A DNA stretch of 64,000 bases from Candidatus Saccharimonadia bacterium (GCA_041743505.1 JBGTMQ010000003.1:25148-89147), one strand, 5' to 3'. Positions 5,816-58,883 are shown, numbered from the stretch's first letter. Translations and numbers: made by a program. Notes: a model not told the origin generated them from the sequence alone.

Positions 5816-7321
5816 ATGCTAATGTTCCATCAAATCGTCTCACAGCTTTCGCTCTCCCCCTCTGCCATATCAATGTTGGCCTTCTACGCCAAGCGGCTCA
5901 AGCAGGAACGCATCACCCGGTTTTTCTCGGCCTTCGCGGCCGTACTCATTGTAGGATTACAGTTTGCCACCATTCTGGCGCCGCCGGCCCCATCAAACGC
6001 CGCTTCACCCGGCGATATTATTTATGGTGGGGTTGTCTCCAAAGCCGACCTGCTCAATAAGTATGACGCCAGCCCGGAGCTTCGAGCCCTTTACGAACGG
6101 TTCGGCATCACCCGCCAGGACATGGTCAATACCACCCAGGGTCAAATTAATAGTCGCGACCGCACCCTAAACTCGCTCGGCCGTGTTCACCACGACGCCA
6201 GCGACCAACCCGTTCCCATTGGCGGCACTACCTATTGGGCCCGGTTCCTCTATAAATTTGATACCGGAGCCAACGTACAACGCGGCTCCACCTACGACGT
6301 CTTAACCGGCACCCGGTCACGCGACGGCGGCTACTTTGCCGTCATGCTGCGCTGCGGCAACCTGGTATTCAAGTCTATCCCGCCCGTACCAACGCCACCA
6401 CCTCCGCCTCCACCACCACCTACACCCAAGCCAACCCCACTCCCGACCCCGGTTCCAACCCCCATACCAGCTAAGCCAACCATGACGTGCACCGGCTTAA
6501 CCGGCAACACGAGAACCGGCCAGGTACCACTCACAGTCGCATTCATTGGCTCCGGAGTAGCCACCAACCAAACCATCACCGAGTACCAATTCAGTTTCGG
6601 CGACGGCAAAACCGCTAACCAGCCCGGCGCTACCATCTCGCATACCTACGAAACCCCCGGCGTCTACATCGCCACTCTCCAAGTAAAAGGCTCAACCGGA
6701 ACCGTATCGGCTCCCAACCCGCTTTGCTCCTACACTATTACCGTAACTCCCCCGCCCGCCGCTTTCCAAAAAGGCAAATCAGCTCTTAACCTTACCCAAA
6801 ACATTGACGCTACCACAGCTCCAGCCCGCGCCGGCGATGTCATCCGCTACATCCTAACCACTAAGAACACCGGCGGTGCCAGCGAACAGTACAGCGTGGT
6901 GGAGCACGTCGAAGACGTTCTCGAATACGCCGAAGTCACCGACCCCAATGGTGGCACGCTAACCAACGGTGTCTTAACCTGGCCCGCAGTAGCTATCCAG
7001 CCCGGCCAAACCCTCACCAAGACATTCACCGTCAAGGTCAAAGACCCGGTCCCTGCTACTCCAGTCGGCGTATCTGATAAGTTCTCCTACGACCTGCGTA
7101 TGGACAATGTTTACGGCAACACCGTCCAAATTAAATTGCAGCCACCACTCCCCAAGCAGGTAGAAGTAGCATCGGCTACCTTACCGCAAACCGGCACCGG
7201 CACCACCACCTTTATCATCTTGCTGGTATCAACCCTGACCATCTTCTTCTACCTGCGCAACCGCCAGCTGAGCACTGAAATCAAGCTCTTACGAGGTGAT
7301 TACCACGGAGGACTATCATAA
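5816..7321 (+). CDS. Sortase-anchored cell-surface protein with PKD and DUF11-like domains and a C-terminal LPQTG sorting signal
   Basis: The signal peptide probably begins at M20 (5873; KRLKQERITRFFSAFAAVLIVGLQFATILAPPAPSNA). A poly-Pro/Thr linker (PPPPPPPPTPKPTPLPTPVPTPIP) follows. The PKD-like motif is FSFGDGKT...HTYETPGVYIATLQV and the DUF11-like segment is AGDVIRYILTTKNTGG. The C-terminus is LPQTG plus a hydrophobic helix plus RNRQ. Confidence 0.75.
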   Translation: MLMFHQIVSQLSLSPSAISMLAFYAKRLKQERITRFFSAFAAVLIVGLQFATILAPPAPSNAASPGDIIYGGVVSKADLLNKYDASPELRALYERFGITRQDMVNTTQGQINSRDRTLNSLGRVHHDASDQPVPIGGTTYWARFLYKFDTGANVQRGSTYDVLTGTRSRDGGYFAVMLRCGNLVFKSIPPVPTPPPPPPPPPTPKPTPLPTPVPTPIPAKPTMTCTGLTGNTRTGQVPLTVAFIGSGVATNQTITEYQFSFGDGKTANQPGATISHTYETPGVYIATLQVKGSTGTVSAPNPLCSYTITVTPPPAAFQKGKSALNLTQNIDATTAPARAGDVIRYILTTKNTGGASEQYSVVEHVEDVLEYAEVTDPNGGTLTNGVLTWPAVAIQPGQTLTKTFTVKVKDPVPATPVGVSDKFSYDLRMDNVYGNTVQIKLQPPLPKQVEVASATLPQTGTGTTTFIILLVSTLTIFFYLRNRQLSTEIKLLRGDYHGGLS

Positions 7322-7878
7322 TGTCAGTTGAGCATCAACCTAAGCCCGGCCAAAATCACGAACGAGACCACCAGGCCGAGCTCGCATCCATGGCCAAGGA
7401 GCAGCTGGAACGGCAATCCGTTTCACCCGAAGCTGCCGCAGAACATGCCGAGCAACGAGCCGAAGCCGCCCGTGAGGTCATCAACCAGCCCGAACCCGAG
7501 CAGCAAACTCCAGCCCAAGAACAAGAGGCCGCACCGGCACCCACCTTTGCTGCCCGCATCGATCATGCCCTCAATTACTCGCAAACCATGGCCAGCCTCC
7601 AGCGCAAGCTCACCCCGGCCAGCCGCGCCTTCAGCAAAGTAATCCACATCCCGGTCGTGGAAAAGACCAGCGAGGCTCTCGAACAAACGGTCATGCGGCC
7701 GTCGGTCGTAGCAGGAGCCACCTGGAGTGCGTTTATTACCGGCCTTGTTTTCTACGTCGTTGCTCGCCTCTACGGCTGGACATTATCCGGCACCGAAATG
7801 CTAGTAGCCTTAGTAGCCGGAGGCATCCTTGGCATCGCCCTGGAAGGCCTAGCCCGGCTCCTGCGCCGCAAGGCTTAA
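7321..7878 (+). CDS. Small membrane protein translationally coupled to the LPQTG protein
   Basis: 185 aa. TAATG stop/start overlap at 7319-7323. The N-terminus is acidic and Q/E/A-rich, and the C-terminus has two predicted TM helices. No recognisable family. Confidence 0.55.
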   Translation: MSVEHQPKPGQNHERDHQAELASMAKEQLERQSVSPEAAAEHAEQRAEAAREVINQPEPEQQTPAQEQEAAPAPTFAARIDHALNYSQTMASLQRKLTPASRAFSKVIHIPVVEKTSEALEQTVMRPSVVAGATWSAFITGLVFYVVARLYGWTLSGTEMLVALVAGGILGIALEGLARLLRRKA

Positions 7879-8086: not shown

Positions 8087-11000
8087 TTACTCACCAACAA
8101 TCACATCGCCTTTTTCATCAACATAGACCTCACCCTTGGCCAATTTAGGTGGCTTTTGCGTCAAAGTGGAGGCGACAGGCTCCGGCTTAGGTTTACGGTT
8201 AGCAGATGGCAATATCAACTTGCCGGGCAAAGAATCAGATTTTTGCTCTGGCTGCTCCTCGGTCTCCTCAGACTTCTCGGACATCTCAGCATGTTCCGCC
8301 GCCGGCACCGCATGCTCATGATGCTCTTCACGTGGCTCCTGAGGTTTAGAGGGCTTCTTAATATCAGCCAACCGATGACGCCTTGGCTGTTCAGCAGGCC
8401 TCTTTGACTGAGCCTCTTCTGCCTTCACGGGCAGCGTTTCGGCTTCAGGTGCTTCTGTTCTAGACTCATGCTCAGGTACCGGCGCCGGCTCTGGTGCTTC
8501 GGCCAACTTGGCCGCTCTGGCCTTAGCCACATCACTAGCCACCAAGGATTCGGCCTGCGGCAACCCCACGTCTGGTTCAAGGAATGAAACTGACGCAGGA
8601 GCTGGTTCCGGCTCAGGCTTTGGTACTGGCGCTGGCGCCGGCGCCGGCCGTGATTCCAGCTTCGGCTCAGGCCGCGGTTCCGGCTGCGGCTTCATCACCG
8701 GCTTTGACACTGGCGGTACCTGCTTAATTGGCGTCTGAACCGGCTTCACTGGGCTACCTGCCGGTCCCGGCCTGGCGCCTGGCGGCGGTGGCGCGTCAGT
8801 CTTGGCGCTCAAAGCAGCCTGTTTCCGCTCAGCCTCCAGTTCTGCCTCCAGCTCCTGCTGCAACTGGTCACGACGAGGCACAATCGGCTCAAGCGGCATG
8901 ATGACCTTTTGGTGTGTGTGAGTAAATGTGTGTTCCATAGACGGCTGGTCACTCCGGGGAGTCTCATCGTCATCCTCATCAGGCATCTGGTCCTTTGGTA
9001 TCGCCGGCCCAACCCAGTGTCTTGAAGAGTCGTCCGCTTCACCATCGTGACCTTTCTTCGAGTGGGTTGCCTCACCAGAGCCCGCCAATGCCCGGTGCTC
9101 TTTCTCCGGCTTAATGAGAGATTCACTCATCAGCTTATCAATCTCTTGCTCTGCCTGAGCCACCGGATTCTCACTGTGTCCGGACTCATCGGACGCGGGA
9201 GCGGCATTGGACTCAGGCGAAGCCTTTGGTTCGGAGTCCAAAGCCGGCACATAAGGCGATGACGTTAAGGCTTGGGCAGCCTTGCGCTTGGCTGCCGCCT
9301 CCATAACTGCAGCCAACGTCTCCTCAGTGCTACGTACGGCCACCGGAGGCTTTGGTTTGACTACTGGAGGAGGCGGAGTAGCTGGTGCTGGAGGCTCGGC
9401 CGGCTTAGGCGTCGGCAATATTGACTCCGATTTCGGAGCAGCAGATACCACCACTTCTGGTGCTAATACAGGTTTCACCGGAACCGCAGGCTTATCCTCA
9501 AACCCAACCCCTGGCGCTACCAGGTTCTCGGGTACTAGCGTGGTGCCCTCCTCTTCACTAAATTGACTCTTTTCCAGCCTTGGCGGTTCAGGTTCCGGCA
9601 ATACCGGTGCAATCGGAGTCGGCTTAGACTCCGGCATAGGAGCAGGCTCAGGCGCCGGTTCAGGAGCTGGTTTTGATACCGGCTCAGGAGCAGGTTTCAG
9701 TATTGGTTCGAAGGCTGGTTTGGGCAGCTCAACCGGCACCGGCGTGGTCTGCGACTGGCCAATAGGTGGCGCACCAATTGGCGGCGGAGCAATTACCTGG
9801 GCTAGCTCTGCTGAAGTAATATCCGACGACTGCTCGGGCGAAGCCGGCGCCACCGGAGCCGAAACCGGAGCTGAAGCGGGCATCGGCAGCAGAGCCGCGG
9901 GTGGAGAAGCCGGCGCATCAGTAGTCAAAGCAGCCGGACCAATAGGAGTCAATGGTAACGCCTTCTCAGATTTCTGATCCGGAACCAGTGTCGGAAATGG
10001 CTCATCAACTGGCCGCTCAAGTACTGTTTCCAGGCTTGGATCTACAAAATGAATAAGTGATCCTACAGCATCATCATAGCTCTGCTCCGGCTGAGCAACC
10101 GCACTGACCGGTTCAGAAACCACCGCGGTAGGTGCCACAGGTTCAGGCACTGCCGCGAGTACCGGCGTCACCACGGAAGCCGGTTTAGGCCTAAATACAG
10201 GCTCAGAAGCTGCCGGCTGATTAGAGACCATGGGCTCCGAAGCCGGATAAAGCGGCTCAGGCTCAGGTATTGGCAACGAAGACAGTGTGGTCACCGGCGA
10301 TGCTATCGCCTGAGGATCGGTAGGCTGCATCGAGGCCGGGACAGGTAGCGGCGGCTTAGGCTCTTCAATCATAGGCGCTGGCTGAATCAGCGCGGTCGCC
10401 GGAGCAGGAGGCGACACAAGAGTTGGAGCCGGCTGTACCTCTGGAGCCGGCTCTGCTATTACCGGAGTCGGCGTCGGCTCTATGACAGGCAATACCGGTG
10501 GTGGCGGAGGTGGCGCAATAGGCTGGTACACCGACGAAACCGACGCCGGAATTGGCTCCGAAGCAGCTACTGACGCTAGCTCAGCCTCAGACGGAGGGCC
10601 AATAGGAGCCGGCGGCCCGATGGGCGCTACAGGCTCGGGGGCAACATCAGGTACAGAAACCGGAACTGGTAGCGGCAAAGCCGCTTCTTCAGGCTCAGGG
10701 ACCGGCTGGGGTGCGCCCAACAAAGGAATCTCCGCCATCGGATCCATAGCAGGATCATACGGCGGTGGTGGCGGCACCGCCGGTTCTGCAGGCTGCTCAA
10801 CCGGAGCCGGTTGGGCTACCCGCGGTTCCGCACCCGGCGGAATCAGTGGGATATTCAACAGGTCATCGCTGGCACCCGACGATGCCAGCGGCACCGGACC
10901 AGGCCGGCGGCCACCGGTAATATCAGTAATCGATAACCGGTTCTGATCACCAGGAACAGGTGCCGGAGGAGCAGCACTCAGCTCAGGAAGCTCTGGCTCT

Positions 11001-13990
11001 TCAGGAATAATCGGCGAAACCGGCTCCATCAGTTGCCCAGCAGTATTAACGATTGGAGGCACATTATCCGCAGCCGGAATTCCAGGTACACCAGCATCAA
11101 CCGGCGGCGCACCAATAGGTGGCGGCGTATGGGCCAGACCCGTCCCACCCACAGGCGCCGAAGTTAGTGGCAGCGGAATGGGCGGCGCACCAATCGGCGG
11201 GGTTACCGCCGACAACGGATCCAGCGTAGGCGCTGGTAATACCGGCGTAGGCACCTGATTAGACTGTAACGCGGGCATAATCAATTCCGGTGCCGCTTGC
11301 ACCACCGGCGGTAACGGCTCTGGCGTAGGCGCAAGTGCCAGTGGCTGATTAATAGGTGGTGCGCCAATCGGCGGAGGCGTCATCGGTGCGGGCTCAGCAG
11401 CCGCAACCGGCGGCGCAGCAGCCGCCGAAACCAGTGCCGGTTGTAGCTCCGGTGCCGCAAGGACTACCGGCACCGGAGCCGGCTCTGGCGCCGGCACAAT
11501 CACCGTCGGCACAGCCGGTGCTGGCACTGCGACCGGAGCCGGAGCTGGCACAATCGGGGCCGGAACAGGAGGCGGGGGCAGACTCGGTGTCACTCCCGGC
11601 TCTCGGCCGGTCAACCTAGCCGCAATATCCGCCTCCACCACATCCTTAGCATGACCAAACTTAGCCGCGCTCAGCTGCTTAATCGCCAGCCCCAATTCCG
11701 GATTAGCCAAGCCCAGCGGCGCCAGGTTATGCACGGTAAATGGCTGGCTTGGCAGGCCACCGATCATCAACCGCATCGCCGCATGATAGTTCGGGATATT
11801 CACCAGATCCGAAGTATCAAACACCGGAGCAAACTGCTTAACCATAAACTCGGCGTCATCCGGACCCATCCGGTGCGCCACAATCGTGCCAATATTACCA
11901 AATACCGCATCCCGGATCTCAGTCGTCAATTGGCCGATAAACTGGTTTGCTACCACCAGGTTAAGCCGGTACTTTCGCGCCTCACTCAAAATACTGGCAA
12001 ACGAGTCAGTCGAAAAGTTCTGAAACTCATCCACGTACAGGCAAAAATCGTTGCGCTCGCCCTCAGGAAGGTCAGCCCGGCTCATAGCCGCAGCCTGGAG
12101 CTTAATCACAAAGATCATGCCCAAAAGCTGCGAGTTGAGCTCACCAACCTTGCCCTTGCTCAGGTTCACAATCAGGATTTTCTTGTTATCCATGATGTCG
12201 CGCAGGTTAAAGGCGCTGTTGGTCTGGCCCAAAATATTGCGCATCATCTCGTTGTTCTGGAAGGCGCCAAACTTACTCACGAACCAACCCAGCATTTCGC
12301 TCTTGTGATAATCCGAAGTCTGGCCCATTTCCTTGGTCCAGAAATCAATAACTGTCGGGTCCTTCAAATAGCGAAATTTGTGCTTGAGATAATCTGTATC
12401 AGTAAATACTTTAGGAATCTCAATAAACGTCGATCCATGCGGGTCGCTCATCAATGTCAGCGCGGCATTGCGGTACCAATGCTCATAGCGCGGCCCAATT
12501 ATACCGGTATGACCGGGATCGTACAGCTTGTACAGCATCCCGATCGTCTCTTGGATAATAAAGTCTTTTTGCGCTGGATCACTAAATTCAAACAGGTTCA
12601 AACCTAGCGGAAACTCAGTATCAGCCGGATTAAAGTACACTACGTCCTCGGCTCGGTTTTTGGGCACCATAGCCAGCAATTTTTCCGCCGTGTCACCATG
12701 CGGATCTATAAACGCAAAACCGTTGCCGGCCAGCATATCCTGCACCGCCAGGTTCTCCAGCAATGTCGACTTACCAGTCCCGGTCTGACCCAAGATGTAA
12801 GTGTGCCGGCGACGGTCCTCCACACTCAGCCGAATCTCTTTCTTAACCCCACGAAACTCGTTATAACCAAACAGCGCACCTTCAGCAGGCAACTGTGTCG
12901 GGCCATCTATCTGCTTACTCTGCTGACGCTCTACATTGCTAGTCGGTATAAACTGCGAATCCGGCAGATGAAACAACGTCGCCAACTCAACCGAATTCAA
13001 AACACTTGAGCGAAGTTCAGGCGGGAAAAACCGGAAGATAAAAGCCGTAACCAACCCCTGAACATCCACAGCCGGCAAAAATTTAAACCCATTCAAGCCC
13101 GGCCGCTCAAACAGCGCAAAAGCCGTCGCGATATCGCGTAGCAACTGCTGGCTTCGGCTCACGCTCTCTGTCGATACAAGCACCCGCACCAGCACCTCAA
13201 ATCCAGGATGCTTAGTTTTCTCCTCAACCGCTTCAATTGCCCCCAGCTCCAGATTCGACAAACCCGTCGACTGAGGCTGATGACTCTGATCCTCCGACCG
13301 CTGCTGGGTCGGGGACTTGAATGCCGCCTTAGCTATATCCATCGGCGTAATCTGCATATTGCCGGCCCGGCCCTTGCGCAGTTTAGTAGTCAAGGTAGTC
13401 GCAGACTTGACCCAGTTAGTGCTAGCCGGCCGCACCATAATTTGAATCGCCGCGCCATCACCTTTGCCCAGCGTCGACAGAGTAGTAATAATTGCTTCCA
13501 TCGGGTCACGCTCGATCTGCTCGTAGGTCGCCAGCGGATAGGCACTAGCATTTTTGAGCACCATTTCGCCACCCATGGTCGCAGCCAGCCGGCCTTCCTG
13601 GTTGAAGATATTGTGATCCTCAACTTCCTCCATACGGGCACCCGGATAAGCCGTCTGGATAGCTTTTTCAATCGTACTCACCATACCCACAGGCACCGCC
13701 GCATAAAAATGCACCAACCCGTTCGCGGCAATTAACTCCAGCGCAATATGCCGCTGTCCGTAGAACGTACTCTTAAAACCCTCCGTAGCAGTTCCGGCAA
13801 TCAAGTTATATAGCACCTCAGCGTGGCTCGTTTTCTCGCGCATAACCTCGCGTACATCCCGGCTGCCCGCCACCGTATCTTCGCTGGGTGGAGGCAAATG
13901 AATCAACACCGGCACCATCTTGAGACCGCGCTCAATCGCCTTAGCCCGCCGCAGCTTCCGCTGATATGTCCAATACGCCACACCCGCCAA
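8087..13990 (-). CDS. Giant T4SS-type P-loop ATPase (VirB4/TraC or VirD4/TraG superfamily) with an ~1100-aa C-terminal proline-rich disordered extension
   Basis: 1967 aa. The N-terminal ~800 aa carry Walker A GQTGTGKSTLLENL, a following FAFIDPHGD motif, Walker B LYVDEFQNF, and ARKYRLNLVVANQF, a T4SS ATPase signature (RKYGxxxxxxTQ-like). The remainder is Pro/Ala/Val/Glu-rich with four PPIGAPP(I/V) repeats, EPAP/KPxP tracts and an acidic DEDDDE segment. The annotated start is TTG. An in-frame hydrophobic segment (IVIVVIIFLLLAAGL) and a strong SD GGAGGTGA lie just upstream, between 13991 and 14065. The true start is therefore probably a non-canonical codon further upstream. Confidence 0.7.
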   Translation of the reverse strand: MAGVAYWTYQRKLRRAKAIERGLKMVPVLIHLPPPSEDTVAGSRDVREVMREKTSHAEVLYNLIAGTATEGFKSTFYGQRHIALELIAANGLVHFYAAVPVGMVSTIEKAIQTAYPGARMEEVEDHNIFNQEGRLAATMGGEMVLKNASAYPLATYEQIERDPMEAIITTLSTLGKGDGAAIQIMVRPASTNWVKSATTLTTKLRKGRAGNMQITPMDIAKAAFKSPTQQRSEDQSHQPQSTGLSNLELGAIEAVEEKTKHPGFEVLVRVLVSTESVSRSQQLLRDIATAFALFERPGLNGFKFLPAVDVQGLVTAFIFRFFPPELRSSVLNSVELATLFHLPDSQFIPTSNVERQQSKQIDGPTQLPAEGALFGYNEFRGVKKEIRLSVEDRRRHTYILGQTGTGKSTLLENLAVQDMLAGNGFAFIDPHGDTAEKLLAMVPKNRAEDVVYFNPADTEFPLGLNLFEFSDPAQKDFIIQETIGMLYKLYDPGHTGIIGPRYEHWYRNAALTLMSDPHGSTFIEIPKVFTDTDYLKHKFRYLKDPTVIDFWTKEMGQTSDYHKSEMLGWFVSKFGAFQNNEMMRNILGQTNSAFNLRDIMDNKKILIVNLSKGKVGELNSQLLGMIFVIKLQAAAMSRADLPEGERNDFCLYVDEFQNFSTDSFASILSEARKYRLNLVVANQFIGQLTTEIRDAVFGNIGTIVAHRMGPDDAEFMVKQFAPVFDTSDLVNIPNYHAAMRLMIGGLPSQPFTVHNLAPLGLANPELGLAIKQLSAAKFGHAKDVVEADIAARLTGREPGVTPSLPPPPVPAPIVPAPAPVAVPAPAVPTVIVPAPEPAPVPVVLAAPELQPALVSAAAAPPVAAAEPAPMTPPPIGAPPINQPLALAPTPEPLPPVVQAAPELIMPALQSNQVPTPVLPAPTLDPLSAVTPPIGAPPIPLPLTSAPVGGTGLAHTPPPIGAPPVDAGVPGIPAADNVPPIVNTAGQLMEPVSPIIPEEPELPELSAAPPAPVPGDQNRLSITDITGGRRPGPVPLASSGASDDLLNIPLIPPGAEPRVAQPAPVEQPAEPAVPPPPPYDPAMDPMAEIPLLGAPQPVPEPEEAALPLPVPVSVPDVAPEPVAPIGPPAPIGPPSEAELASVAASEPIPASVSSVYQPIAPPPPPPVLPVIEPTPTPVIAEPAPEVQPAPTLVSPPAPATALIQPAPMIEEPKPPLPVPASMQPTDPQAIASPVTTLSSLPIPEPEPLYPASEPMVSNQPAASEPVFRPKPASVVTPVLAAVPEPVAPTAVVSEPVSAVAQPEQSYDDAVGSLIHFVDPSLETVLERPVDEPFPTLVPDQKSEKALPLTPIGPAALTTDAPASPPAALLPMPASAPVSAPVAPASPEQSSDITSAELAQVIAPPPIGAPPIGQSQTTPVPVELPKPAFEPILKPAPEPVSKPAPEPAPEPAPMPESKPTPIAPVLPEPEPPRLEKSQFSEEEGTTLVPENLVAPGVGFEDKPAVPVKPVLAPEVVVSAAPKSESILPTPKPAEPPAPATPPPPVVKPKPPVAVRSTEETLAAVMEAAAKRKAAQALTSSPYVPALDSEPKASPESNAAPASDESGHSENPVAQAEQEIDKLMSESLIKPEKEHRALAGSGEATHSKKGHDGEADDSSRHWVGPAIPKDQMPDEDDDETPRSDQPSMEHTFTHTHQKVIMPLEPIVPRRDQLQQELEAELEAERKQAALSAKTDAPPPPGARPGPAGSPVKPVQTPIKQVPPVSKPVMKPQPEPRPEPKLESRPAPAPAPVPKPEPEPAPASVSFLEPDVGLPQAESLVASDVAKARAAKLAEAPEPAPVPEHESRTEAPEAETLPVKAEEAQSKRPAEQPRRHRLADIKKPSKPQEPREEHHEHAVPAAEHAEMSEKSEETEEQPEQKSDSLPGKLILPSANRKPKPEPVASTLTQKPPKLAKGEVYVDEKGDVIVGE

Positions 13991-14061
13991 GCCAGCCGCT
14001 AGGAGCAGGAATATAATAACAACGATAACAATGCCGCTCAGCTTCTCACCTCCGTGGCATC

Positions 14062-14505
14062 CTATTTATCCTCGGGCTTTTTGACCTCATGACCATAGCG
14101 CTTCTTCAGGTAATCCACTTGCAAAGACTCAACCGCCTCCTCCTCGGCATACGGGTTACCAGCAGTCTGCGCGATAGCTTGCTCGGCCGCCTCAACCCAC
14201 TCGGGCTCAACCACGTCCTGATCGGCCGCGATCTGCGGTGCTGAAACAACCGGTGCAGCCGGCGCCGGCGCCGCCGCAATCGCATTCGCCACATCCTGAG
14301 CCGTCAAATGTGGTGGCGTAGCTTGCGGCTGGCCGGTATTTTGCGGTGCAGTCGGCGCGGACTGAGGTGCCGGCACGACTTCAGGCGTGGCCGGCCTCAA
14401 CGCCTGCTCCTGCGTACCAGTACCAATCAATTGATCCGGCGCCACATTTCGGTTCGGCATCTGCTCCGGATTGGGAGTACTTTGTGTGTCCATAATTAGA
14501 TTCAT
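14062..14505 (-). CDS. Small Pro/Ala/Gln-rich protein co-transcribed upstream of the giant ATPase
   Basis: 147 aa. Low-complexity Pro-rich centre and a conserved-looking C-terminus (PEWVEAAEQAIAQTAGNPYAEEEAVESLQVDYLKKRYGHEV). Its stop lies under 30 nt from the ATPase start region, on the same strand. Confidence 0.5.
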   Translation of the reverse strand: MNLIMDTQSTPNPEQMPNRNVAPDQLIGTGTQEQALRPATPEVVPAPQSAPTAPQNTGQPQATPPHLTAQDVANAIAAAPAPAAPVVSAPQIAADQDVVEPEWVEAAEQAIAQTAGNPYAEEEAVESLQVDYLKKRYGHEVKKPEDK

Positions 14506-14763: not shown

Positions 14764-14791
14764 GGCCCTTATATCGAAAGGTATAAGGGCC
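14764..14791 (-). terminator. Hairpin directly 3' of the L,D-transpeptidase gene
   Basis: Perfect 10-bp stem ggcccttata/tataagggcc with an 8-nt loop. On the minus strand it is followed by TTGTT. A weak U tract. Confidence 0.4.
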
Positions 14792-16320: not shown

Positions 16321-19053
16321 TTATGCCCGGACCTTAGCCCCAAATTTCCTCGATAAGATTGCCAAAGCCTTTCGCTCAATATCAGCCGCTTCCGCGTCAG
16401 TAGGGGTTCGGTCAGCATGCGCCACCTTCAAATGCAACGCCAAACTCTTGTGGCCGGCCGGCACGCCTTCACCGTAATAATCGCTCACAAAACTAACCTG
16501 GGTCTGCGGCAAGTCAGCCAAGGCCACCGCCACATCCTGCCAAGCCGTACTCGCCGGCACCACAACAGCCAGGTCCCGCCCGACACTGGGGAAGCGCTCC
16601 AAGCCGGCAAACGCGCGCACCCCAAACCGTTTCAACAAAGCGTCAGCATCCAGCTCCACATACGCGGCCTCACCCGCAACCTTCAGCCGCCGCAGCCCCT
16701 CAGGATCAAGTTGACCAATCGTACCCAGCTGCCGTCCGTCCAGCTTAATTTTGGCCACCCGGCCACCAGCATACAGCGCCGGAACCTCCGCCACCGGCTC
16801 CACCGCCAGATTCACACCGAGCTCATCAGCCAACGTATCCAGCAAGCCCTTGGCATGCTGGTACGATTCATCCGGCCGCGCCACCATAATACCCAAATGC
16901 ATTGGCTCATCCGGCTGGTCGGCGGCGCCACGCTTTTCAAACACCCGGCTCAGTTCATAGAAGGCCAGCTCAGCAGCGTACCCACGGTTGCGCGCTAGCA
17001 CACTCAGGTGGCTGGCCAAAAGAGAGGACCGCAAGTACGCCTGCTCAGTCGATAGCGGATTTCTCAGTTTCAAATGCTTCTTCGCGTCCAAACCAGCGCC
17101 GGCCAATTGTTCTTCACTCACAAATGAGTATGTCATCACTTCAAACAACCCGGCGCCATACAACACCTGCTGCAACCGCCGCCGCTTGGACCGCTCCGAG
17201 TCAAATGACACCTCCTGCGGCTGCCACGCCGGAATCTTAGCCGGCACCCGCTCGTAACCCAGCACACGGACAATTTCTTCCACCAAATCCTGAGCTTCTT
17301 TTAGGTCCGGACGCCACCAGGGAATAGCCGGCACCGACAAATAATCATCCAAATTATCCACGTAACGTCGCGCACCCAGGTACTCCGAATGTTTGGTTAT
17401 GACCTCCAACACAGCTTCGTGCACGCCCGGCTGACCAGCATCCGATGCCTGAACGATCTTGCCATCACCAACATACACAGCCACATGGGCAACACCTTCA
17501 CGCTCTTTAGAATCAAGCTTAACCCAATCGCCACCAGCAAATAACAAATCACCCGGCACCAGCTCAGATTGCTTAACCGGCCACCCGGACTTAAATTGCT
17601 GATGCGCCGTATGCCCAATATTCACGCCAATCAGGGAATAGAGGTAGTCGGTTAAGTACGAGCAGTCAAACGCATCGGTCCCATCGGTTTTATAACGAGC
17701 CCCAAACTTATACGGCTTTCCGATGTGGCTCCGAGCCTCCTGAGCCACATCAAATACCCGGGCCTCAATCTGCAGCCGGGCTAGCGTCTGGACAGCCTCA
17801 TGACCCAATACCTCAAAACCCAATAACCGGTTCAGCAATGACCTTCGCAGACCAATCCTTTGCACCCAGGGCCACACGTTCAGCTGCCGCTGAACCGCCC
17901 CAACCCGGCCACCCGCCACTTCAACCAGTAACTCTACTGCCCGCGCCACCGCCACCGGCGCCAATTGCACCGGCAATCCGCGCTCAAATCGTGCGCTGGC
18001 TTCAGTGCGCAAGCCATGCCGCTTGGCCATCTTGCGCACTGTCGCAGCATCAAATGTAGCTGCCTCAAGCACAATTTCCTTGGTCTTTTCATCAACCTGC
18101 GTGCTGGCTCCACCCATCAAGCCGGCCAGCCCGATCGGTCCGGTAGCATCGGCAATAACCAGATCCTGATGGCTTAATTTCCGCTCCACACCGTCCAATG
18201 TCACTAGTTTTTCGCCTTGCCGAGCCAAACGCGCTTCGAGCGGCAGCCTAACCTTAGCAGCATCGTACGCGTGCAGCGGCTGACCGAATTCCAAATTCAC
18301 ATAGTTAGTCACATCCACTATCGGACTAATCGACCGCACACCCACCGCCTGCAACGCACTTGTCATCCAACGAGGGGAGGGGGCCTTCACATCCACCTGC
18401 AACGTCGCCAGCATAAACTGGCTTGCCTTCATGTCATCCAACATCAACTTTACGCCAGCATCCGTCTCCGCCTCCGGTTGCGGCTCCGGCAAATCCTTAA
18501 GCTCCGCGCCGGCAATCGCCCCGATTTCGCGCGCCAAACCAACCACGCTCAACAGATCAAACCGGTTGGCTTGGGTCTTGATATCCACGATTCCACCACT
18601 GGGATATATGTCGCACAATCTTGCCCCAACCACAGCCGTATCTGACAGCTCCAGAATCTGCTCGTGATTTGTCCCTATACCGAGCTCACGCTCACTACAC
18701 AGCATTCCTTCGCTTAACTCACCGCGCAACTTAGCCGCAGCTATCTTGTCGCCACCTGGGAGGGTAGAGCCGACTTGAGCAAAGGCTACCTTAAGCCCTT
18801 TTCGGACATTCGGCGCTCCGCAAACCACCCGCACTTCCCGATCACCCGCATCAACGAACACTAAACTTAGTCGGTCTGCCTTTGGATGCTGCATAACTTT
18901 TTTAACCAGCGCTACGATGACATTTCTATCTATCGGCTCTGAAGAAATAAATTGTTCAACCTCAATTCCAGCCTGCTCCAATGCCTCCACAATCTCATGG
19001 TCCGACATTGTGCGACGTAGCCATTCTTTAACCCAAGGTGTATAAATCTTCAT
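16321..19053 (-). CDS. pheT: Phenylalanine--tRNA ligase beta subunit with an inserted NlpC/P60 domain
   Basis: The N-terminal tRNA-binding domain, B3/4, the B5 motifs (LLGFEV...; VPAIPWWRPDL...DLVEEIVRVLGYERVPA), the core and the C-terminal FDX-ACB-like region are all recognisable. The start is probably M11 (MKIYTPWVKEW) at 19053; the ORF track begins at 19083. Residues ~442-575 (17359-17760) form an NlpC/P60-like block: GKPYKFG, FDCSYL, HTAHQQ, PGDLLFAG, HVAVYVGDGKIVQA. Confidence 0.9.
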   Translation of the reverse strand: MKIYTPWVKEWLRRTMSDHEIVEALEQAGIEVEQFISSEPIDRNVIVALVKKVMQHPKADRLSLVFVDAGDREVRVVCGAPNVRKGLKVAFAQVGSTLPGGDKIAAAKLRGELSEGMLCSERELGIGTNHEQILELSDTAVVGARLCDIYPSGGIVDIKTQANRFDLLSVVGLAREIGAIAGAELKDLPEPQPEAETDAGVKLMLDDMKASQFMLATLQVDVKAPSPRWMTSALQAVGVRSISPIVDVTNYVNLEFGQPLHAYDAAKVRLPLEARLARQGEKLVTLDGVERKLSHQDLVIADATGPIGLAGLMGGASTQVDEKTKEIVLEAATFDAATVRKMAKRHGLRTEASARFERGLPVQLAPVAVARAVELLVEVAGGRVGAVQRQLNVWPWVQRIGLRRSLLNRLLGFEVLGHEAVQTLARLQIEARVFDVAQEARSHIGKPYKFGARYKTDGTDAFDCSYLTDYLYSLIGVNIGHTAHQQFKSGWPVKQSELVPGDLLFAGGDWVKLDSKEREGVAHVAVYVGDGKIVQASDAGQPGVHEAVLEVITKHSEYLGARRYVDNLDDYLSVPAIPWWRPDLKEAQDLVEEIVRVLGYERVPAKIPAWQPQEVSFDSERSKRRRLQQVLYGAGLFEVMTYSFVSEEQLAGAGLDAKKHLKLRNPLSTEQAYLRSSLLASHLSVLARNRGYAAELAFYELSRVFEKRGAADQPDEPMHLGIMVARPDESYQHAKGLLDTLADELGVNLAVEPVAEVPALYAGGRVAKIKLDGRQLGTIGQLDPEGLRRLKVAGEAAYVELDADALLKRFGVRAFAGLERFPSVGRDLAVVVPASTAWQDVAVALADLPQTQVSFVSDYYGEGVPAGHKSLALHLKVAHADRTPTDAEAADIERKALAILSRKFGAKVRA

Positions 19054-19206
19054 CCCATAACTCCAATCATTCGACCATTCCATTCCAACGGCGCACCCAC
19101 TTCCGCGCCACCAAGCATGCCAGTAACTACACCCGTCCGTACTGTATCTAAACTTATCCTCGGGTACGCATCGAGCATATTTGTAGTTTCTACAACACTC
19201 ATCATA

Positions 19207-32780: not shown

Positions 32781-34823
32781 GTGTCAGAACTCATTACCCG
32801 CACAGCCCGGTTAGTCCCTTACGCCAAACGGCCAAAGCAGGTTCCTAGTTTTGTGACCGCCTATAGCTATGAGCCGCTGGCCGAAGAGCCCGGCGCCGAT
32901 CTCGGCAACCTATTTGTCATCATCGAAGTGCTTGTCTCCGGCCGGTCCAGCGAAGACGTAGCTGACTTGGTCATCAGTACCATGGCCGACCACTACTACA
33001 ACCAAGCCACCGATCAATCCGACCCGCTACGCCGGTTCGAAGCTGCCATCAAGGCCACCAATCAAGAGCTGGCCAACTACGTCAATCAAGGCAATGCCGC
33101 CTGGATCGGCAAAATGAGCGCTGTAGTCGCCATCCAAACCGGATCACAGCTGCACCTGACTCAAACAGGCTCGGCAGAAGCATTCTTGTATCGCGGCAAG
33201 TCAGCTGCCCGCATCTCGGCCAACCAAGGAGCCGCCCGCCCAACCGCTCCCAGCAAGACCTTCGGTTCCATCGCCAGTGGCGATCTGGAGCCCGGCGACC
33301 GGCTGCTGCTAGCCACCCCCGCGCTCGTCCATCAGCTCTCCTTGACCAAGCTTAAAACCATTGTCAGCGACACCAGCCCCAACAATGCTATTGCTGAAAT
33401 TACCCAACTCCTGCGCGGCGGCGCGTCCGGCCGTATCGCTGCACTGGTCATTGAGATCACGACGCCGGAACTAGCCGCCTTGCAAGTCCGGTCTGAGGAA
33501 CCAAGCGAGATCCAGCTCGGCACCCCGGACAACGTGCTTGAGGCCGCCAAAATGGCCGCCGCACCAATCGCCCAAGCCACAGTCAGTTCCAGCCGGCGAG
33601 CCGGCGCTGCCGCTAAAACCGGCTGGAAAAAAAGCCGGCCTCACCTGCAACAAGCGCTCCAGGTTACCACCGGCTTCATCCGCGAGCAACTAGCCCACAA
33701 GGACTCGCGCAAGCGACTATTCGTCGCCGCCGCTATTCTGCTCGGGTTCATCATCGTCCTCTGGCAGTGGCAAACTGGCACTGTCCGCACCAAGCAATTA
33801 GAAACCCGCTATCAAAACGACTATAACCAATACCAGCTAGCCGTCACCGCCGCCAACAATGGCGACAAAACCACCGCCCGGAACATGCTCTCCAGGCTCC
33901 AAGGCGAGCTGACTGGCCTGTTTCAAGCTCCCGGCCGCAAAAGCCTCGATGCCAAACTCAAGCAATCCGCCACTGGACCTAAGTCAGTCGCCGAGCTGGC
34001 TGGCCTAACTGCCACTAAGCTAGACCAAATTGAAGGCCTACACCGCGTCGACGTCAGTACCGTCGCTTCATTTAGTAGTATAAAAAACAGCAAGCCAACC
34101 CATTTTGAGCTCGCCGGCAACAAAGCCTACACCTTCGACGAAGGTAAAAACCCGTCCCTCTACATTGCAAATATCACAACAAATATCATCCAGAAATCCA
34201 AGGCAGACACTTCACGGCTTGGCGCTATCACTGCTACCACCATATCGAGCAGCTCAGATGGTATCTACCTCTTAACCGACAAGCCATCAGTCTGGTTTTA
34301 CAACTTTGCCGCCGATTCCCTAACCGAACAGTCGGTCGGTGTAGGCCAATGGCCGGCAGGCACAGCCATCGCATCATATGCAGGCAATCTCTATATCCTG
34401 GGAGGTGGCATGGTCTACAAACATGTCCGCACCTACAGCGGCTATTCGCCCAAAGCCCCCTACCTGGCTCCACAGACCCCTGGCCTAGCCAACGCCACCG
34501 CCATGGCAGTCGATGGTATGGTGTTTCTATTATCACCCTCAGGGTTGAGAGAATTCTCAGCCGGCGCCTTCAAGCAAGCCGCGGACACTCCTTCAACACT
34601 CAAGAACGCGCGCCTAATACGGTCAAGCGGCGGCGGCAACTCCGTCATCGCCATAGCCGGCGATACCAAGCGCATTGGTTTCTGGGATAACACCAAGACT
34701 CTAAAGTTCGCCAAGCAATACGAGCTAGGCGGCGTCTCGTCCCTGCACGACGCCGCCTACGACCCCAAGACCCAAACTGTTTACGCGTTAGTGAACAGCC
34801 GGCTCGTGAAGTTTACGATCTAA
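32781..34823 (+). CDS. Membrane-anchored PP2C/SpoIIE-like phosphatase with a large C-terminal extracytoplasmic domain
   Basis: The N-terminal ~240 aa show PP2C-like blocks: LFVIIEVLVSG...; GSAEAFLYRGKSAARIS; GDLEPGDRLLLATPAL. A single TM follows (LFVAAAILLGFIIVLWQW), then a ~330-aa beta-rich domain. The call is tentative. Confidence 0.5.
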   Translation: MSELITRTARLVPYAKRPKQVPSFVTAYSYEPLAEEPGADLGNLFVIIEVLVSGRSSEDVADLVISTMADHYYNQATDQSDPLRRFEAAIKATNQELANYVNQGNAAWIGKMSAVVAIQTGSQLHLTQTGSAEAFLYRGKSAARISANQGAARPTAPSKTFGSIASGDLEPGDRLLLATPALVHQLSLTKLKTIVSDTSPNNAIAEITQLLRGGASGRIAALVIEITTPELAALQVRSEEPSEIQLGTPDNVLEAAKMAAAPIAQATVSSSRRAGAAAKTGWKKSRPHLQQALQVTTGFIREQLAHKDSRKRLFVAAAILLGFIIVLWQWQTGTVRTKQLETRYQNDYNQYQLAVTAANNGDKTTARNMLSRLQGELTGLFQAPGRKSLDAKLKQSATGPKSVAELAGLTATKLDQIEGLHRVDVSTVASFSSIKNSKPTHFELAGNKAYTFDEGKNPSLYIANITTNIIQKSKADTSRLGAITATTISSSSDGIYLLTDKPSVWFYNFAADSLTEQSVGVGQWPAGTAIASYAGNLYILGGGMVYKHVRTYSGYSPKAPYLAPQTPGLANATAMAVDGMVFLLSPSGLREFSAGAFKQAADTPSTLKNARLIRSSGGGNSVIAIAGDTKRIGFWDNTKTLKFAKQYELGGVSSLHDAAYDPKTQTVYALVNSRLVKFTI

Positions 34824-39777: not shown

Positions 39778-40566
39778 ATGGTGCTCATGCTTGCATTATT
39801 GCTAGGTGGGTGTACGATGATGCATTCGTCAAACGAGGCTGTCCGAACCCCCTTTTGTCCGAACCCCTATATGGAACCACATCGTTATCTATCCTCATAC
39901 CTGGCCACTCCCGACTCTACTAACGGCCCGGCAAAGAAACTGACTCTGCATAAACCCGACCTACGGCGCTACAAGCTCGGGCCTCGGTTCTATGTGCTTT
40001 GGCAGCTCCGACCACACCTGCCCAGCCGCAACTGGGCTGCCCTCAGCCTCTGGGCTGTTCTATTAGTAGTCGGCTTGTACGGCTTCGAAAATCATAGGCT
40101 CCCCAGAGTGCCAGCCGACGTCGCAGCCGCCGACGGCCGGGCCCAACAAACACCGTCCGCCTCTCCGGTCGCTCTAGCCAGCACCGCCAAGGTCACAGAG
40201 CTGCCCGGCGGGCCCACGGACCAGCTCCTGCCACCCGGCACCATGGCCCCCATGCACACCTACAAAAACAGCTACAGCCGCGGCCAATGCACCTGGTATG
40301 TCGCCGGCCGGCGACCGGTACCCAATAACTGGGGCCACGCCCGAACCTGGTTTGCTCGCGCCAAAGCCGCCGGCCGGGCCACCGGCGCCGTACCAGCTGT
40401 TGCTGCCATCGCCTGGACACCCGCCGGGCGGTATGGCCACGTCGCCATCGTCGAAGACGTCAATACCTTCACCGGACAGGTCTTGATCTCCGAAATGAAT
40501 TACCGCGGCCCCTACAAGCTCACCAAGCGGTGGGTGCCCACCGGCAGCTTCAAATACATATATTAA
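39778..40566 (+). CDS. CHAP-domain peptidoglycan hydrolase lipoprotein
   Basis: Lipobox LLGGC. The C-terminal CHAP core has the Cys in GQCTWYVAGRR and the His in GRYGHVAIVEDV. Confidence 0.8.
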   Translation: MVLMLALLLGGCTMMHSSNEAVRTPFCPNPYMEPHRYLSSYLATPDSTNGPAKKLTLHKPDLRRYKLGPRFYVLWQLRPHLPSRNWAALSLWAVLLVVGLYGFENHRLPRVPADVAAADGRAQQTPSASPVALASTAKVTELPGGPTDQLLPPGTMAPMHTYKNSYSRGQCTWYVAGRRPVPNNWGHARTWFARAKAAGRATGAVPAVAAIAWTPAGRYGHVAIVEDVNTFTGQVLISEMNYRGPYKLTKRWVPTGSFKYIY

Positions 40567-40605: not shown

Positions 40606-42006
40606 TTGCTTATGATTAACCGTCTCCATCCCAAACACTGGCGGCCCGAGCTAATCCTAATCATTGGCCTGGCCATCATTACCCGCCTCTGGTCGGTCAT
40701 GCACCCCAAAGCCGTTGTTTTCGATGAAGTCTACTTCAAAGTTTTCGCCGGCCATTACTTGGACGGACAATACTTCTTTGATATACACCCGCCGCTCGGC
40801 AAGCTACTCCTGGCCGGTTGGTCCTTCCTGGCAGGGATACCTGCCACCGAGCTCGCCGACGGTACAGCCGTAGCATTACGCTTCTTGCCGGCCATCGCCG
40901 GCGTCCTCATCATTCCTGTCTTTTGGGGCATCTTGCGGCGACTCGGCGCCTCCCGGGCCTTCGCCTTCCTGGGTGCAGCCGCCCTCTTGCTCGACAATGC
41001 TCTGCTCGTCGAATCACGCTTTATCCTTACCGACTCCATGCTACTGCTATTCGGTCTTTCGTCACTCTACGCCTATCTGGCAGCCCGCCAGCAAACCGGC
41101 TCCTGGCGATGGGTCTGGCTGAGTCTAGCCGCCCTCATGGCCGGCGCCGCCGTCAGCACCAAGTGGACCGGCCTGACAGCATTAGCACTCATTGGGCTTT
41201 TCTGGATCTACGATCAATTCCGCCGGCCCCTTAATTGGCGCCGTATTATCAGTGAGCTAGCCATCCTGGTATTCATACCGTTACTCATATATGTCGGCTC
41301 GTTCTGGGCCCACTTTGCCTTGCTTCCCCACTCCGGCGATGGCGACGCCTTCATGTCCAGCCGTTTCCAGCAAACTCTCGCCGGCAGCTCTACATATAAC
41401 CCCGGCACCCACCTTAGTTTCTGGGATAAATTTTCCGAACTCAACCAAGTAATGTACCGGTCCAACCAAACCCTCACCGCCACCCACCCGTACGGCTCGT
41501 CCTGGAATACCTGGCCGCTTGAGCTCCGCCCCATCTATTATTGGCAGGGCCCCGCCACCACCGATGGCAAGCAAGCTAATATCTACCTACTCGGCAACCC
41601 TGTCGTCTGGTGGGGCACACTTCTGGCCATCCTGTCCGGCCTGGTCTATGTCTGGACAACCCGCATCAAACTCCGCCCCGCCACCAAGCTCGCTCTCGTC
41701 GTCGCCGGCGGCGCCTACCTCATGAATTTCCTACCGTTCGTCGGCGTTCCCCGCGTCATGTTCCTCTACCACTACTTCTTCTCATTTATCTTTAGTGTCA
41801 TCTTTGCCGTCATGCTCTGGAACGACCTCACTACCTCCCGGTCTGATCCCCAAAAACAACTCGCCACATCCACAAGCCGGCGTATCTACGGAGCCGTACT
41901 TATGGCCATCCTGCTCGGGTTCGTCTACTTCGCACCCCTGTCCTATGGCATCCCCATGAACCCACATCAGCTACAAATGCACATGTGGCTCCCCAGCTGG
42001 CGCTAA
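40606..42006 (+). CDS. GT39 / PMT-family glycosyltransferase (protein O-mannosyltransferase or ArnT-like)
   Basis: 466 aa. N-terminal loop motifs FDEVYF and DIHPPLGK, with more than 10 TM helices. Confidence 0.8.
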   Translation: MLMINRLHPKHWRPELILIIGLAIITRLWSVMHPKAVVFDEVYFKVFAGHYLDGQYFFDIHPPLGKLLLAGWSFLAGIPATELADGTAVALRFLPAIAGVLIIPVFWGILRRLGASRAFAFLGAAALLLDNALLVESRFILTDSMLLLFGLSSLYAYLAARQQTGSWRWVWLSLAALMAGAAVSTKWTGLTALALIGLFWIYDQFRRPLNWRRIISELAILVFIPLLIYVGSFWAHFALLPHSGDGDAFMSSRFQQTLAGSSTYNPGTHLSFWDKFSELNQVMYRSNQTLTATHPYGSSWNTWPLELRPIYYWQGPATTDGKQANIYLLGNPVVWWGTLLAILSGLVYVWTTRIKLRPATKLALVVAGGAYLMNFLPFVGVPRVMFLYHYFFSFIFSVIFAVMLWNDLTTSRSDPQKQLATSTSRRIYGAVLMAILLGFVYFAPLSYGIPMNPHQLQMHMWLPSWR

Positions 42007-57927: not shown

Positions 57928-58873
57928 ACCTTTGCAACAAAAAGTAGCAGGCCTCTAAGCTAGAAGTTGGAAGCAACTAATCTAGGAGACCTGCTATGTC
58001 ATACACTAGCAACCCCTTTGCCCCACGGGCAAGACGTGAAGCCATTAATCTCGTGCGCCAGCGCGGCTGGACTAAGGCTCAGGCCGCCCGGTACACCGGG
58101 GTTCACCGTTCAACTATTGGCCGCTGGTTAGCCCGGGCACCCCGTCATGCTGCCTCAGTCATTCCAACTAAGTCATCCCGGCCACATCATCCTGCCGGTA
58201 CGCTTGACCCGGCCATTGTCCGTCGCATTATCGAACTCAGATACCAGTACCGGCGCTGTGCGCCGGTACTGGTGGCCTATCTCATAAGAGAAGGTATCCG
58301 AGTGAGCCGGTCGAGTGTTGAGCGGACTCTCAAGCGGCATGACCTGACCCGTAAACAGGGTGGACACGGCCGCTACCGCAAAAGCCTGCCCCGGCCTCGT
58401 GCAGAGGCTCCGGGTGACCTTGTTCAAGCTGACACGATTCATTTTGTGGACAATAACGGCAAACGCTTCTATATCTACACTCTCATTGACCTTTACTCCC
58501 GCTGGGCCTATGCCGAATACCATGCCAAACTCAGCCACCAAACCAGCGTAGGCTTTGTTTTACGAGCCCAAGAGAAAGCCGGATTTGCCTTCCAGATGCT
58601 CCAAACCGACAACGGTCCGGAATGGAGCCGGTGGTTTTCGGACCAGATGCATTACCGGGGCATTCCCGTACGGCATTCACGGGTGCGGCAATGCAATGAC
58701 AATGCTCATATCGAGCGGTTCAATCGCACCTTACAGGAAGAAGGCGTGGGCCGGTGGCCCACGCCACAGTTGCTCCCGGCATTGATTAAAGAGTACCTAG
58801 ATTATTACAACGAGGAGCGGCTACACTTAGGATTGAATCTAGTTTGTCCAAGGCAAGCTATTGTTGCAAAGGT
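57928..58873 (+). mobile_element. IS481-family insertion sequence
   Basis: Perfect 13-bp terminal inverted repeats, acctttgcaacaa (57928-57940) and ttgttgcaaaggt (58861-58873). Imperfect extension outward to ~57912 and ~58892. A single transposase ORF. Confidence 0.75.
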
Positions 58874-58883
58874 CCTGACGTAA
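57996..58883 (+). CDS. IS481-family DDE transposase
   Basis: N-terminal HTH and rve core (DTIHFVDNNGKRFYIYTLIDLYSRWAYA...LQTDNGPEW...E). SD AGGAGAC. Confidence 0.85.
   Translation: MSYTSNPFAPRARREAINLVRQRGWTKAQAARYTGVHRSTIGRWLARAPRHAASVIPTKSSRPHHPAGTLDPAIVRRIIELRYQYRRCAPVLVAYLIREGIRVSRSSVERTLKRHDLTRKQGGHGRYRKSLPRPRAEAPGDLVQADTIHFVDNNGKRFYIYTLIDLYSRWAYAEYHAKLSHQTSVGFVLRAQEKAGFAFQMLQTDNGPEWSRWFSDQMHYRGIPVRHSRVRQCNDNAHIERFNRTLQEEGVGRWPTPQLLPALIKEYLDYYNEERLHLGLNLVCPRQAIVAKVLT

Follow-up and report, generated by a model that had tools for sequence, protein, structure and literature searches.

A VirB4-like ATPase with a giant proline-rich tail, encoded with a conserved small partner in Saccharibacteria

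A 64,000-nucleotide (nt) stretch of DNA from a Candidatus Saccharimonadia bacterium (GCA_041743505.1 JBGTMQ010000003.1:25148-89147), referred to below as the window, carries two adjacent genes on its minus strand between positions 8087 and 14505. One encodes a giant ATPase, probably of the DUF8128 family, with a membrane helix at its N-terminus and a proline-rich tail at its C-terminus, and the other, located directly upstream, encodes a small proline-rich protein. Here we describe the gene model, domains, relatives and neighborhood of this pair and weigh what it may do.

The ATPase gene, its start codon and its upstream partner

Counted from a TTG codon, the ATPase open reading frame (ORF; 8087..13990) runs uninterrupted for 1,967 amino acids (aa). 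A previous reading made from this DNA alone (the sequence-only reading) had noticed a membrane segment upstream of the TTG and proposed either a non-ATG start or a frameshift. The segment does lie there in frame, as the sequence upstream of the TTG reads stop (14068-14066)-IGCHGGEK-L-SGIVIVVIIFLLLAAGLAGVAYW, which supplies a complete hydrophobic helix. Homologs begin with M/L-(S/N)-G-I-V exactly where a CTG codon (14039..14041) sits in the window, and in a DNA alignment this CTG shares a column with the GTG start of one relative (L005) and the ATG starts of two others (L001 and L002). All four aligned starts are preceded by a purine-rich Shine-Dalgarno sequence, which in the window is GGAGG (14053-14049), 7 nt upstream of the CTG. 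Additionally, a contig of an independent Logan assembly (SRR28170470, contig L085) was found to match the window from 23505 to 11461 without gaps (12,045 nt, 100.000% identity), confirming both the start region and the ATPase part of the gene. The aligned starts of the homologs, the Shine-Dalgarno sequence and the identical second assembly together indicate that the rare CTG is the true start and exclude a frameshift. The complete coding sequence, obtained from the ORF call and its in-frame upstream extension, therefore occupies 8087..14041 (minus strand; 1,984 codons, CTG at 14041-14039, stop at 8089-8087) and specifies a protein of 1,984 aa with its N-terminal membrane helix restored. Residue positions of the ATPase given below count from this CTG. 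The window protein, with either a TTG or a GTG start, had no exact-sequence match in the protein collection. In two relatives with similarly giant tails (P0190 and P0198), the gene calls open inside or after the membrane helix ('VAYFVYQGKL' and 'MSAYYVYRRKL'), so rare starts or start-calling errors may recur in their clade as they do in the window.

The upstream gene (14062..14505, minus strand) encodes a protein of 147 aa (pI 4.3), and its stop codon lies 20 nt before the ATPase start. The protein consists of a variable, proline-rich N-terminal half and a conserved acidic C-terminal domain of ~50 aa (...EWVE..PY.EEEAVESLQVDYLKKRYGH.VKKP.). When 84 related loci were searched with a hidden Markov model (HMM), a match was present directly upstream of the ATPase and on the same strand in 70, bearing out the earlier suggestion that the small gene is a partner of the large one. 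The two genes form a conserved operon. None of the 69 database homologs of the partner bears its own Pfam domain, and the unrelated PF00829 occurs in one long member.

Folded domains, membrane topology and tail

The restored helix is predicted to be the single transmembrane (TM) helix of the ATPase (aa 2-24; 13970..14038, minus strand), oriented N-out and C-in and followed by the positively charged RKLRRAK. Residues 4-22 form the only segment of the protein above a Kyte-Doolittle value of 1.6 (score 3.12), and in the AlphaFold2 (AF2) model of a homolog, P0068, the N-terminal helix comprises residues 2-35. With RKLRRAK on the ATPase side of this helix and no second hydrophobic stretch in the protein, both the ATPase and the entire tail are placed in the cytoplasm. 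The tail would consequently not span the envelope, contrary to the earlier supposition.

Two folded domains follow on the minus strand, namely a DUF8128 domain (aa ~36-370; 12932..13936) and a RecA-type ATPase domain (aa ~383-812; 11606..12895). The latter contains the motifs quoted in the sequence-only reading: Walker A GQTGTGKS (aa 418-425; 12767-12790), FIDPHGD (aa 444-450), Walker B DEFQNF (aa 671-676; 12014-12031) and RKYRLNLVVANQ (aa 689-700; 11942-11977). The catalytic residues are all invariant in an alignment of 116 sequences. Searches of Pfam, NCBIfam, PADLOC and PDB sequences returned weak matches centered on the P-loop, the best being to the coupling proteins TraD, TrwB and DotL, while some homologs carry precomputed matches to PF10412, PF02534 or PF12696. 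Because sequence searches were unable to separate VirB4 from VirD4 or HerA, structures were compared.

The AF2 model of P0068, which is 63% identical to the window protein, has a predicted local distance difference test (pLDDT) score of 87.7 and shows, from its N- to its C-terminus, a helix, a domain of alpha/beta type, a RecA-type ATPase domain that holds a helical insertion (P0068 aa 483-598), a linker lacking structure and finally a beta-hairpin. Structure comparison gave values of 29.4 for the VirB4 C-terminal domain (CTD), 28.3 for DptH, 26.5 for TrwB, 24.7 for HerA, 24.0 for DotL and 17.6 for FtsK. A model of window residues 25-380 (pLDDT 87.4, predicted TM-score 0.85) returned a match list from which ATPase-only structures were absent, and in an independent Foldseek search of the same model the top 14 chains were all TrwK/VirB4. 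According to these models, DUF8128 adopts the same fold as the N-terminal domain of VirB4. The two hallmarks of VirB4 were thus both found, an N-terminal domain of this fold and a RecA-type domain with intact Walker A and Walker B motifs, and a TrwB-like nucleotide-binding domain was found as well. In coupling proteins the membrane domain is joined directly to the ATPase, whereas here a VirB4-like domain of 335 aa lies between the TM helix and the ATPase. Neither the full set of FtsK/SpoIIIE features (alpha, beta and gamma domains, and an N-terminal domain of four TM helices) nor a HerA-type HAS-barrel preceding the ATPase domain was detected. In its architecture the protein resembles VirB4, while its sequence signature is that of a coupling protein, and it belongs to the VirB4/VirD4 superfamily but to neither curated family. 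The sequence-only reading had named the same superfamily. The cut-offs of the curated VirB4 and coupling-protein profiles are not reached.

The remainder of the protein is a disordered tail rich in proline, alanine and glutamate (aa 815-1964; 8150..11599, minus strand), as judged from its composition. Its ~1,150 residues comprise 24% Pro, 14% Ala and 9.5% Glu, with a net charge of -74 and a pI of 4.5, and aromatic residues and cysteine make up 1.2% of it, as opposed to 8.9% of the folded part. The heptapeptide PPIGAPP occurs in exactly four copies, at aa 890-896 (11354..11374), 948-954 (11180..11200), 974-980 (11102..11122) and 1420-1426 (9764..9784), in agreement with the four repeats and the long, acidic, proline-rich extension noted earlier. 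A tail 7-mer at four copies was obtained in 0 of 5,000 residue shuffles and in 0 of 3,000 first-order Markov simulations. No long internal repeats were detected in the tail by self-BLAST or Tandem Repeats Finder, which showed short EPAP-type runs only.

Comparable tails were found in a clade of at least 10 diverged members, including L005 (747 aa), L032 (1,021 aa) and the representatives P0190-P0198 (proteins of 1,584-2,006 aa, tails of 764-1,206 aa). Within this clade the tails are 27-43% identical, as against 67-84% for the DUF8128 domain (aa 25-380), and strongly conserved islands account for ~4% of tail residues. These islands are PPPIGAPPV, which corresponds to the third PPIGAPP copy; ITDITGG, within LSITDITGG (aa 1036-1044; 10910..10936); IMPLEPI, within IMPLEPIVP (aa 1714-1722; 8876..8902); LPQAESLVASDVAKA (aa 1827-1841; 8519..8563); and the C-terminus PKLAKGEVYVDEKG. 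Outside the window protein and its close relatives, no PPIGAPP motifs were seen. Elsewhere in the family, disordered tails of about 100-600 aa are the rule. In 115 close homologs the tail has a median length of 342 aa and a maximum of 599 aa; more distant species have a median of about 160 aa, and some members lack a tail altogether. Tail length may be free to drift, with this genome at the long extreme of the range.

The protein ends in a family-wide C-terminal beta-hairpin (8090..8149, minus strand; ...KLAKGEVYVDEKGDVIVGE), which occupies the extreme C-terminus of nearly all homologs, whether their tails measure 66 or 1,200 aa. It falls into three sequence classes, 'GE[IV][YF][IV]DxxGN[IV]', 'DTI[YF]IDxxGN' and 'LDLR...[IV]S[IV]KLR'. 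In the P0068 model the linker scores below pLDDT 50 and the hairpin that follows about 77. Two tail-less members (L074 and L076; 817-826 aa) end in '...EERMSIKF/L' right after the last ATPase helix, so that the last strand is present without a linker, and in the published model of a paralog, SEML1_0293, the last 20 residues were parsed into the P-loop domain. These three observations suggest that the hairpin packs onto an ATPase domain, in which case the tail would effectively be a giant tether between the core and the last structural element. Across the 84 loci, the C-terminus of the small partner varies with the hairpin class ('...KD[IV]K...' in the IDxxG class, '...[ET]LG...' in the KLR class); this co-variation was not counted as evidence because it is confounded by phylogeny.

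Family, apparent counterparts and gene neighborhood

A database search with the first 830 residues of the ATPase gave more than 7,000 relatives. The top-ranking ones show 58-80% identity, belong to Candidatus Saccharimonadia and have precomputed matches to PF26449 (DUF8128). The window protein would belong to DUF8128 by virtue of these matches, although the local Pfam copy, probably without this model, gave none. The family is universal in Saccharibacteria: a scan of one genome per species identified relatives in at least 600 species, nearly all labeled Saccharibacteria or Patescibacteria and including complete genomes, and the DUF8128 domain alone forms 1,424 clusters at 50% identity. In the NCBI annotation pipeline (PGAP), relatives appear either as 'TraM recognition domain-containing protein' or as 'type IV secretory system conjugative DNA transfer family protein'. 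The earlier impression that no such architecture had been described was thus mistaken: the family is catalogued as DUF8128, has been counted among coupling-protein homologs and has been scored in a transposon sequencing (Tn-seq) table, and its members regularly have tails. Searching the literature for 'DUF8128' returned no papers, and a search on proline-rich or disordered proteins in Saccharibacteria returned nothing relevant. In these searches we met no account of an N-terminal domain like that of VirB4, of the combination of tail and hairpin, of the partner, of a clade with giant tails or of the split into essential and non-essential paralogs.

The Tn-seq table concerns Southlakia epibionticum, in which the same gene order is found near gyrB and gyrA (Wang et al., 2023; PMC10633639, Table S1). 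There, SEML1_0141 (139 aa) was scored GD/ES/ES, with insertions falling from 9 in the input to 0, and SEML1_0142 was scored ES/ES/ES, with 114 insertions in the input reduced to 11, 11 and 9; SEML1_0143 and SEML1_0144 were non-essential, and SEML1_0145/0146 (gyrB and gyrA) were ES/ES/ES and GD/ES/ES, respectively (PMC10633639). Neither SEML1_0141 nor SEML1_0142 appears in the main text of that study. One oral Saccharibacterial protein (L051) has the same length (1,019 aa) and PGAP name as SEML1_0142 and shares 53% identity with residues 1-814 of the window protein. On the basis of synteny, of relatives sharing name and length and of this identity, we infer that the window pair is the counterpart of SEML1_0141/0142 and is probably essential.

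A recent survey described 'the' t4cp homolog of strain ML1 as non-essential (Quinonero-Coronel et al., 2025). This description fits the paralog SEML1_0293 (NE/NE/NE), not SEML1_0142. S. epibionticum possesses two such ATPases, the essential SEML1_0142 and the non-essential SEML1_0293, of which the survey speaks of one.

The order of genes around the pair, pheS-pheT-(YkuD)-partner-ATPase, then a convergent membrane protein of ~185 aa, a DUF11/PKD surface protein and gyrB-gyrA, is kept down to ~50% identity. A 12-bp hairpin after the YkuD gene (14764..14791) separates it from the partner-ATPase transcription unit. On the other side, the convergent gene (7321..7878, plus strand) encodes 185 aa with an acidic N-terminal half and C-terminal membrane helices; it adjoins the ATPase in 49 of the 84 loci by HMM search, but as its syntenic counterpart SEML1_0143 is non-essential, it is probably not part of the core machine. 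The surface protein gene beyond it (5816..7321, plus strand) encodes PKD and DUF11/DUF7927 domains together with a run of prolines, a sorting motif of the LPQTG-like kind and a membrane helix at the C-terminus; its place beside the ATPase is kept across the family, L001-L004 included, and its syntenic counterpart SEML1_0144 is likewise non-essential. Scans with Rfam and for tRNAs found nothing near the ATPase locus. Among ORFs of at least 150 aa in the window, a scan that short VirB2- or VirB3-like genes may have escaped, no VirB4, VirB6, VirB8 or relaxase family was detected, and VirB3/VirB6/VirB8-type genes were likewise absent from the flanks of L001-L004, in accordance with the earlier remark that no conjugation genes are nearby.

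Several other features of the window were recorded. The pheT gene (16321-19083, minus strand, 920 aa) contains an NlpC/P60 domain (PF00877, aa 455-549, E 3.8e-14) between its B3_4 and B5 domains; the insert is present in L085, while pheT at the same position in L001-L004 (667-779 aa) has no NlpC/P60 match. An IS481-type transposase with an rve integrase core and a helix-turn-helix (57996-58883, plus strand) is the only obvious mobile-element gene. A lone PilB/GspE-type ATPase (42969-44552, plus strand; T2SSE, E 1e-104) has no other pilus family next to it among the scanned ORFs and is preceded by a PMT-family glycosyltransferase (40606-42006) and a CHAP-domain protein (39778-40566). A 680-aa ORF (32781-34823, plus strand) has no Pfam match at E 0.001 or better.

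Proposed role and likeness to known systems

Saccharibacteria and other Patescibacteria live as ultrasmall obligate parasites of bacteria with an essential type IV secretion system (T4SS), whose function has been called 'completely unknown' (PMC11665869) and whose gene cluster contains no recognizable coupling protein (PMC10633639). We propose, with a probability of about 0.5, that the DUF8128 ATPase is a ring ATPase serving this separately encoded T4SS, with its tail as a flexible tether. The ATPase would assemble as a ring at the membrane, like its structural relatives, and act as an energizer or substrate receptor for the distantly encoded system. The tail would present short motifs to partners in the cytoplasm, and the terminal hairpin may pack back onto its own or a neighbor's ATPase domain, or onto the small partner. 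Such an arrangement would recall two coupling proteins with disordered tails at their C-termini, the TraM-binding TraD and DotL.

Several findings weigh against this proposal. No type IV secretion gene lies within the 64 kb, so the link to the T4SS has no support from genomic context. The window protein falls well short of the cut-off of every curated VirB4 and coupling-protein model, scoring 15.1 bits against 643 for TIGR00929 (VirB4_CagE; E 0.0049), 40.3 against 366 for TIGR03743, 17.7 against 20.5 for PF10412 and 24 against 250 for NF045973. Orthology with SEML1_0142 was assigned other than by direct sequence alignment, and the 9-11 transposon insertions that SEML1_0142 tolerates may lie in its tail, which would make the tail dispensable. 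Finally, Patescibacterial coupling-protein homologs have been regarded as possibly exapted for other functions (Quinonero-Coronel et al., 2025).

This last point leads to a possible, though less probable, account in which the ring is independent of any T4SS and moves nucleic acid or protein across or along the membrane, for example in the uptake of host-derived RNA or DNA, on which the parasites depend. The gene and the secretion cluster are always separate, the former lying in a block of the core genome flanked by pheST and gyrBA; only 148 of 5,713 Patescibacterial coupling-protein homologs lie near virB4 (Quinonero-Coronel et al., 2025); two DNA translocases, HerA and FtsK, are among the structural relatives, as is DptH, which is linked to DNA modification; and one Patescibacterium takes up host RNA by an unresolved route. 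However, VirB4 is the best match for each of the two folded domains and is known only from type IV secretion machines, one TM helix alone cannot form a channel, and the conserved neighboring membrane protein is non-essential in S. epibionticum. That the protein is a canonical coupling protein (VirD4/TraD/TraG) of an integrated mobile element, as its best profile matches and the PGAP names of its relatives might suggest, is close to refuted: neither a relaxase nor mating-pair genes were detected in 64 kb, the gene keeps a fixed place on the chromosome in at least 600 species, the apparent S. epibionticum counterpart is essential, the VirB4-type N-terminal domain is one that coupling proteins lack, and no curated cut-off is reached. 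An FtsK-like chromosome-segregation pump is brought to mind by the nearby gyrase genes and by the published domain parse, in which DPAM assigns the P-loop domain of SEML1_0142 to ECOD e2iutB2, that is, FtsK. We consider this very unlikely, as FtsK ranks well under VirB4 and TrwB in the structure comparison, its alpha and gamma domains were not found and the N-terminal domain is VirB4-like. A substitute for FtsK was rejected because S. epibionticum has a canonical, essential FtsK (SEML1_0096).

The tail and the gene model invite two further explanations. The EPAP and KPAP runs resemble TonB spacers, and 1,150 residues, if fully extended, would by our own estimate exceed the cell diameter, so the tail might be imagined to cross the envelope as a TonB-like EP/KP rod or to be threaded out through a secretion channel. 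There is little to recommend this, because the tail starts in the cytoplasm after the ATPase domain, no hydrophobic segment follows the N-terminal helix with its positive flank on the ATPase side, and the terminal hairpin is conserved along with the ATPase core even in tail-less members. An assembly artefact, in which a chimera or frameshift near 11.6 kb fused separate ORFs, or a pseudogene with a disrupted start, is hardly credible. Contig L085 does end at 11461, 45 aa inside the tail, a low-complexity, GC-rich stretch that evidently troubles short-read assemblers. The exact sequence of the tail hence rests on one assembly, and its continuity on relatives from other assemblies. These relatives (L005, L032 and P0190-P0198) share the layout and keep the C-terminal hairpin in frame after 760-1,200 tail residues, which excludes a chimera and supports the earlier view of tail and ATPase as one ORF, while the start region is identical in two assemblies and its CTG aligns with orthologous starts.

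To return to the proposed T4SS-serving ring, a bolder version can be drawn, which we regard as doubtful. In it, the ATPase and its partner would be the missing, essential motor and receptor of the T4SS, which might serve the parasitism of host bacteria by importing host macromolecules such as RNA; the hypervariable tail would be a cell-spanning tether or condensate scaffold that gathers cargo or machinery at the site of host contact; and PPIGAPP, DITGG, PLEPIVP and the hairpin would constitute a docking code. Independently of this version, the conserved operon of a VirB4-like ATPase and a small acidic partner offers a genetically testable candidate in the one genetically tractable relative, where the apparent counterparts are essential in the only available Tn-seq set, yet not discussed there, and are distinct from the non-essential paralog SEML1_0293. 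Moreover, tails of every size from none to ~1,200 residues occur naturally in the family, while the ATPase core and the terminal hairpin on either side stay fixed. Few such series exist in bacteria, and this one could help to show what purpose long disordered tethers serve.

Compared with VirB4/TrwK/TraC (R388 TrwK, 7o42/7o43; T. pseudethanolicus VirB4 CTD, 4ag5), to which it is only 10-14% identical, the window ATPase has its own fused TM helix and does not rely on VirB3, is encoded apart from secretion genes and possesses a disordered tail of ~1,150 aa, a terminal hairpin and a dedicated small partner. Low-complexity segments of hundreds of residues, rich in EP/KP or PQ, occur on membrane-anchored proteins in TonB and in the linker of E. 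coli FtsK. The TonB spacer, however, is periplasmic and the FtsK linker connects the membrane domain to the motor, whereas the window spacer is cytoplasmic and follows the motor.

Closer likenesses exist within the Saccharibacteria. SEML1_0142/SEML1_0141 of S. epibionticum ML1 and XMT17169.1/WP_285441665.1 of oral Saccharibacteria share with the window the order small gene, ATPase, convergent ~190-aa membrane protein, DUF11 surface protein, gyrB and gyrA, and SEML1_0142 has the same domain boundaries as the window ATPase, with the P-loop domain at aa 381-800. Proteins of the SEML1_0142 type differ in being 1,019 aa long, with a tail of ~200 aa and an '...ISIKLR' hairpin, as opposed to ~1,150 aa and 'GEVYVDxxGxV' in the window. 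The paralog type represented by SEML1_0293 is also a Candidate Phyla Radiation ATPase with ~360 residues before its P-loop domain and a C-terminal piece parsed into the ATPase domain, but it has a clear Pfam coupling-protein match (PF10412, 3e-15), is scored non-essential throughout and lies beside CRISPR-Cas in S. epibionticum.

With the coupling proteins TrwB (1e9r), F-plasmid TraD and Legionella DotL (6sz9/7ovb), the window ATPase has an N-terminal membrane anchor in common. It alone has the VirB4-type N-terminal domain, and its gene, unlike theirs, has no relaxase or oriT context, is core chromosomal and is apparently essential. The TraD tail measures about 140 aa, so that the window tail would be ~8 times longer. 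In TraD, a flexible, acidic cytoplasmic C-terminal tail carries a conserved, turn-containing end that docks the small protein TraM (PMC7555446). The TraD tail and TraM may therefore be taken as the closest functional analogy for the tail, hairpin and small partner described here.

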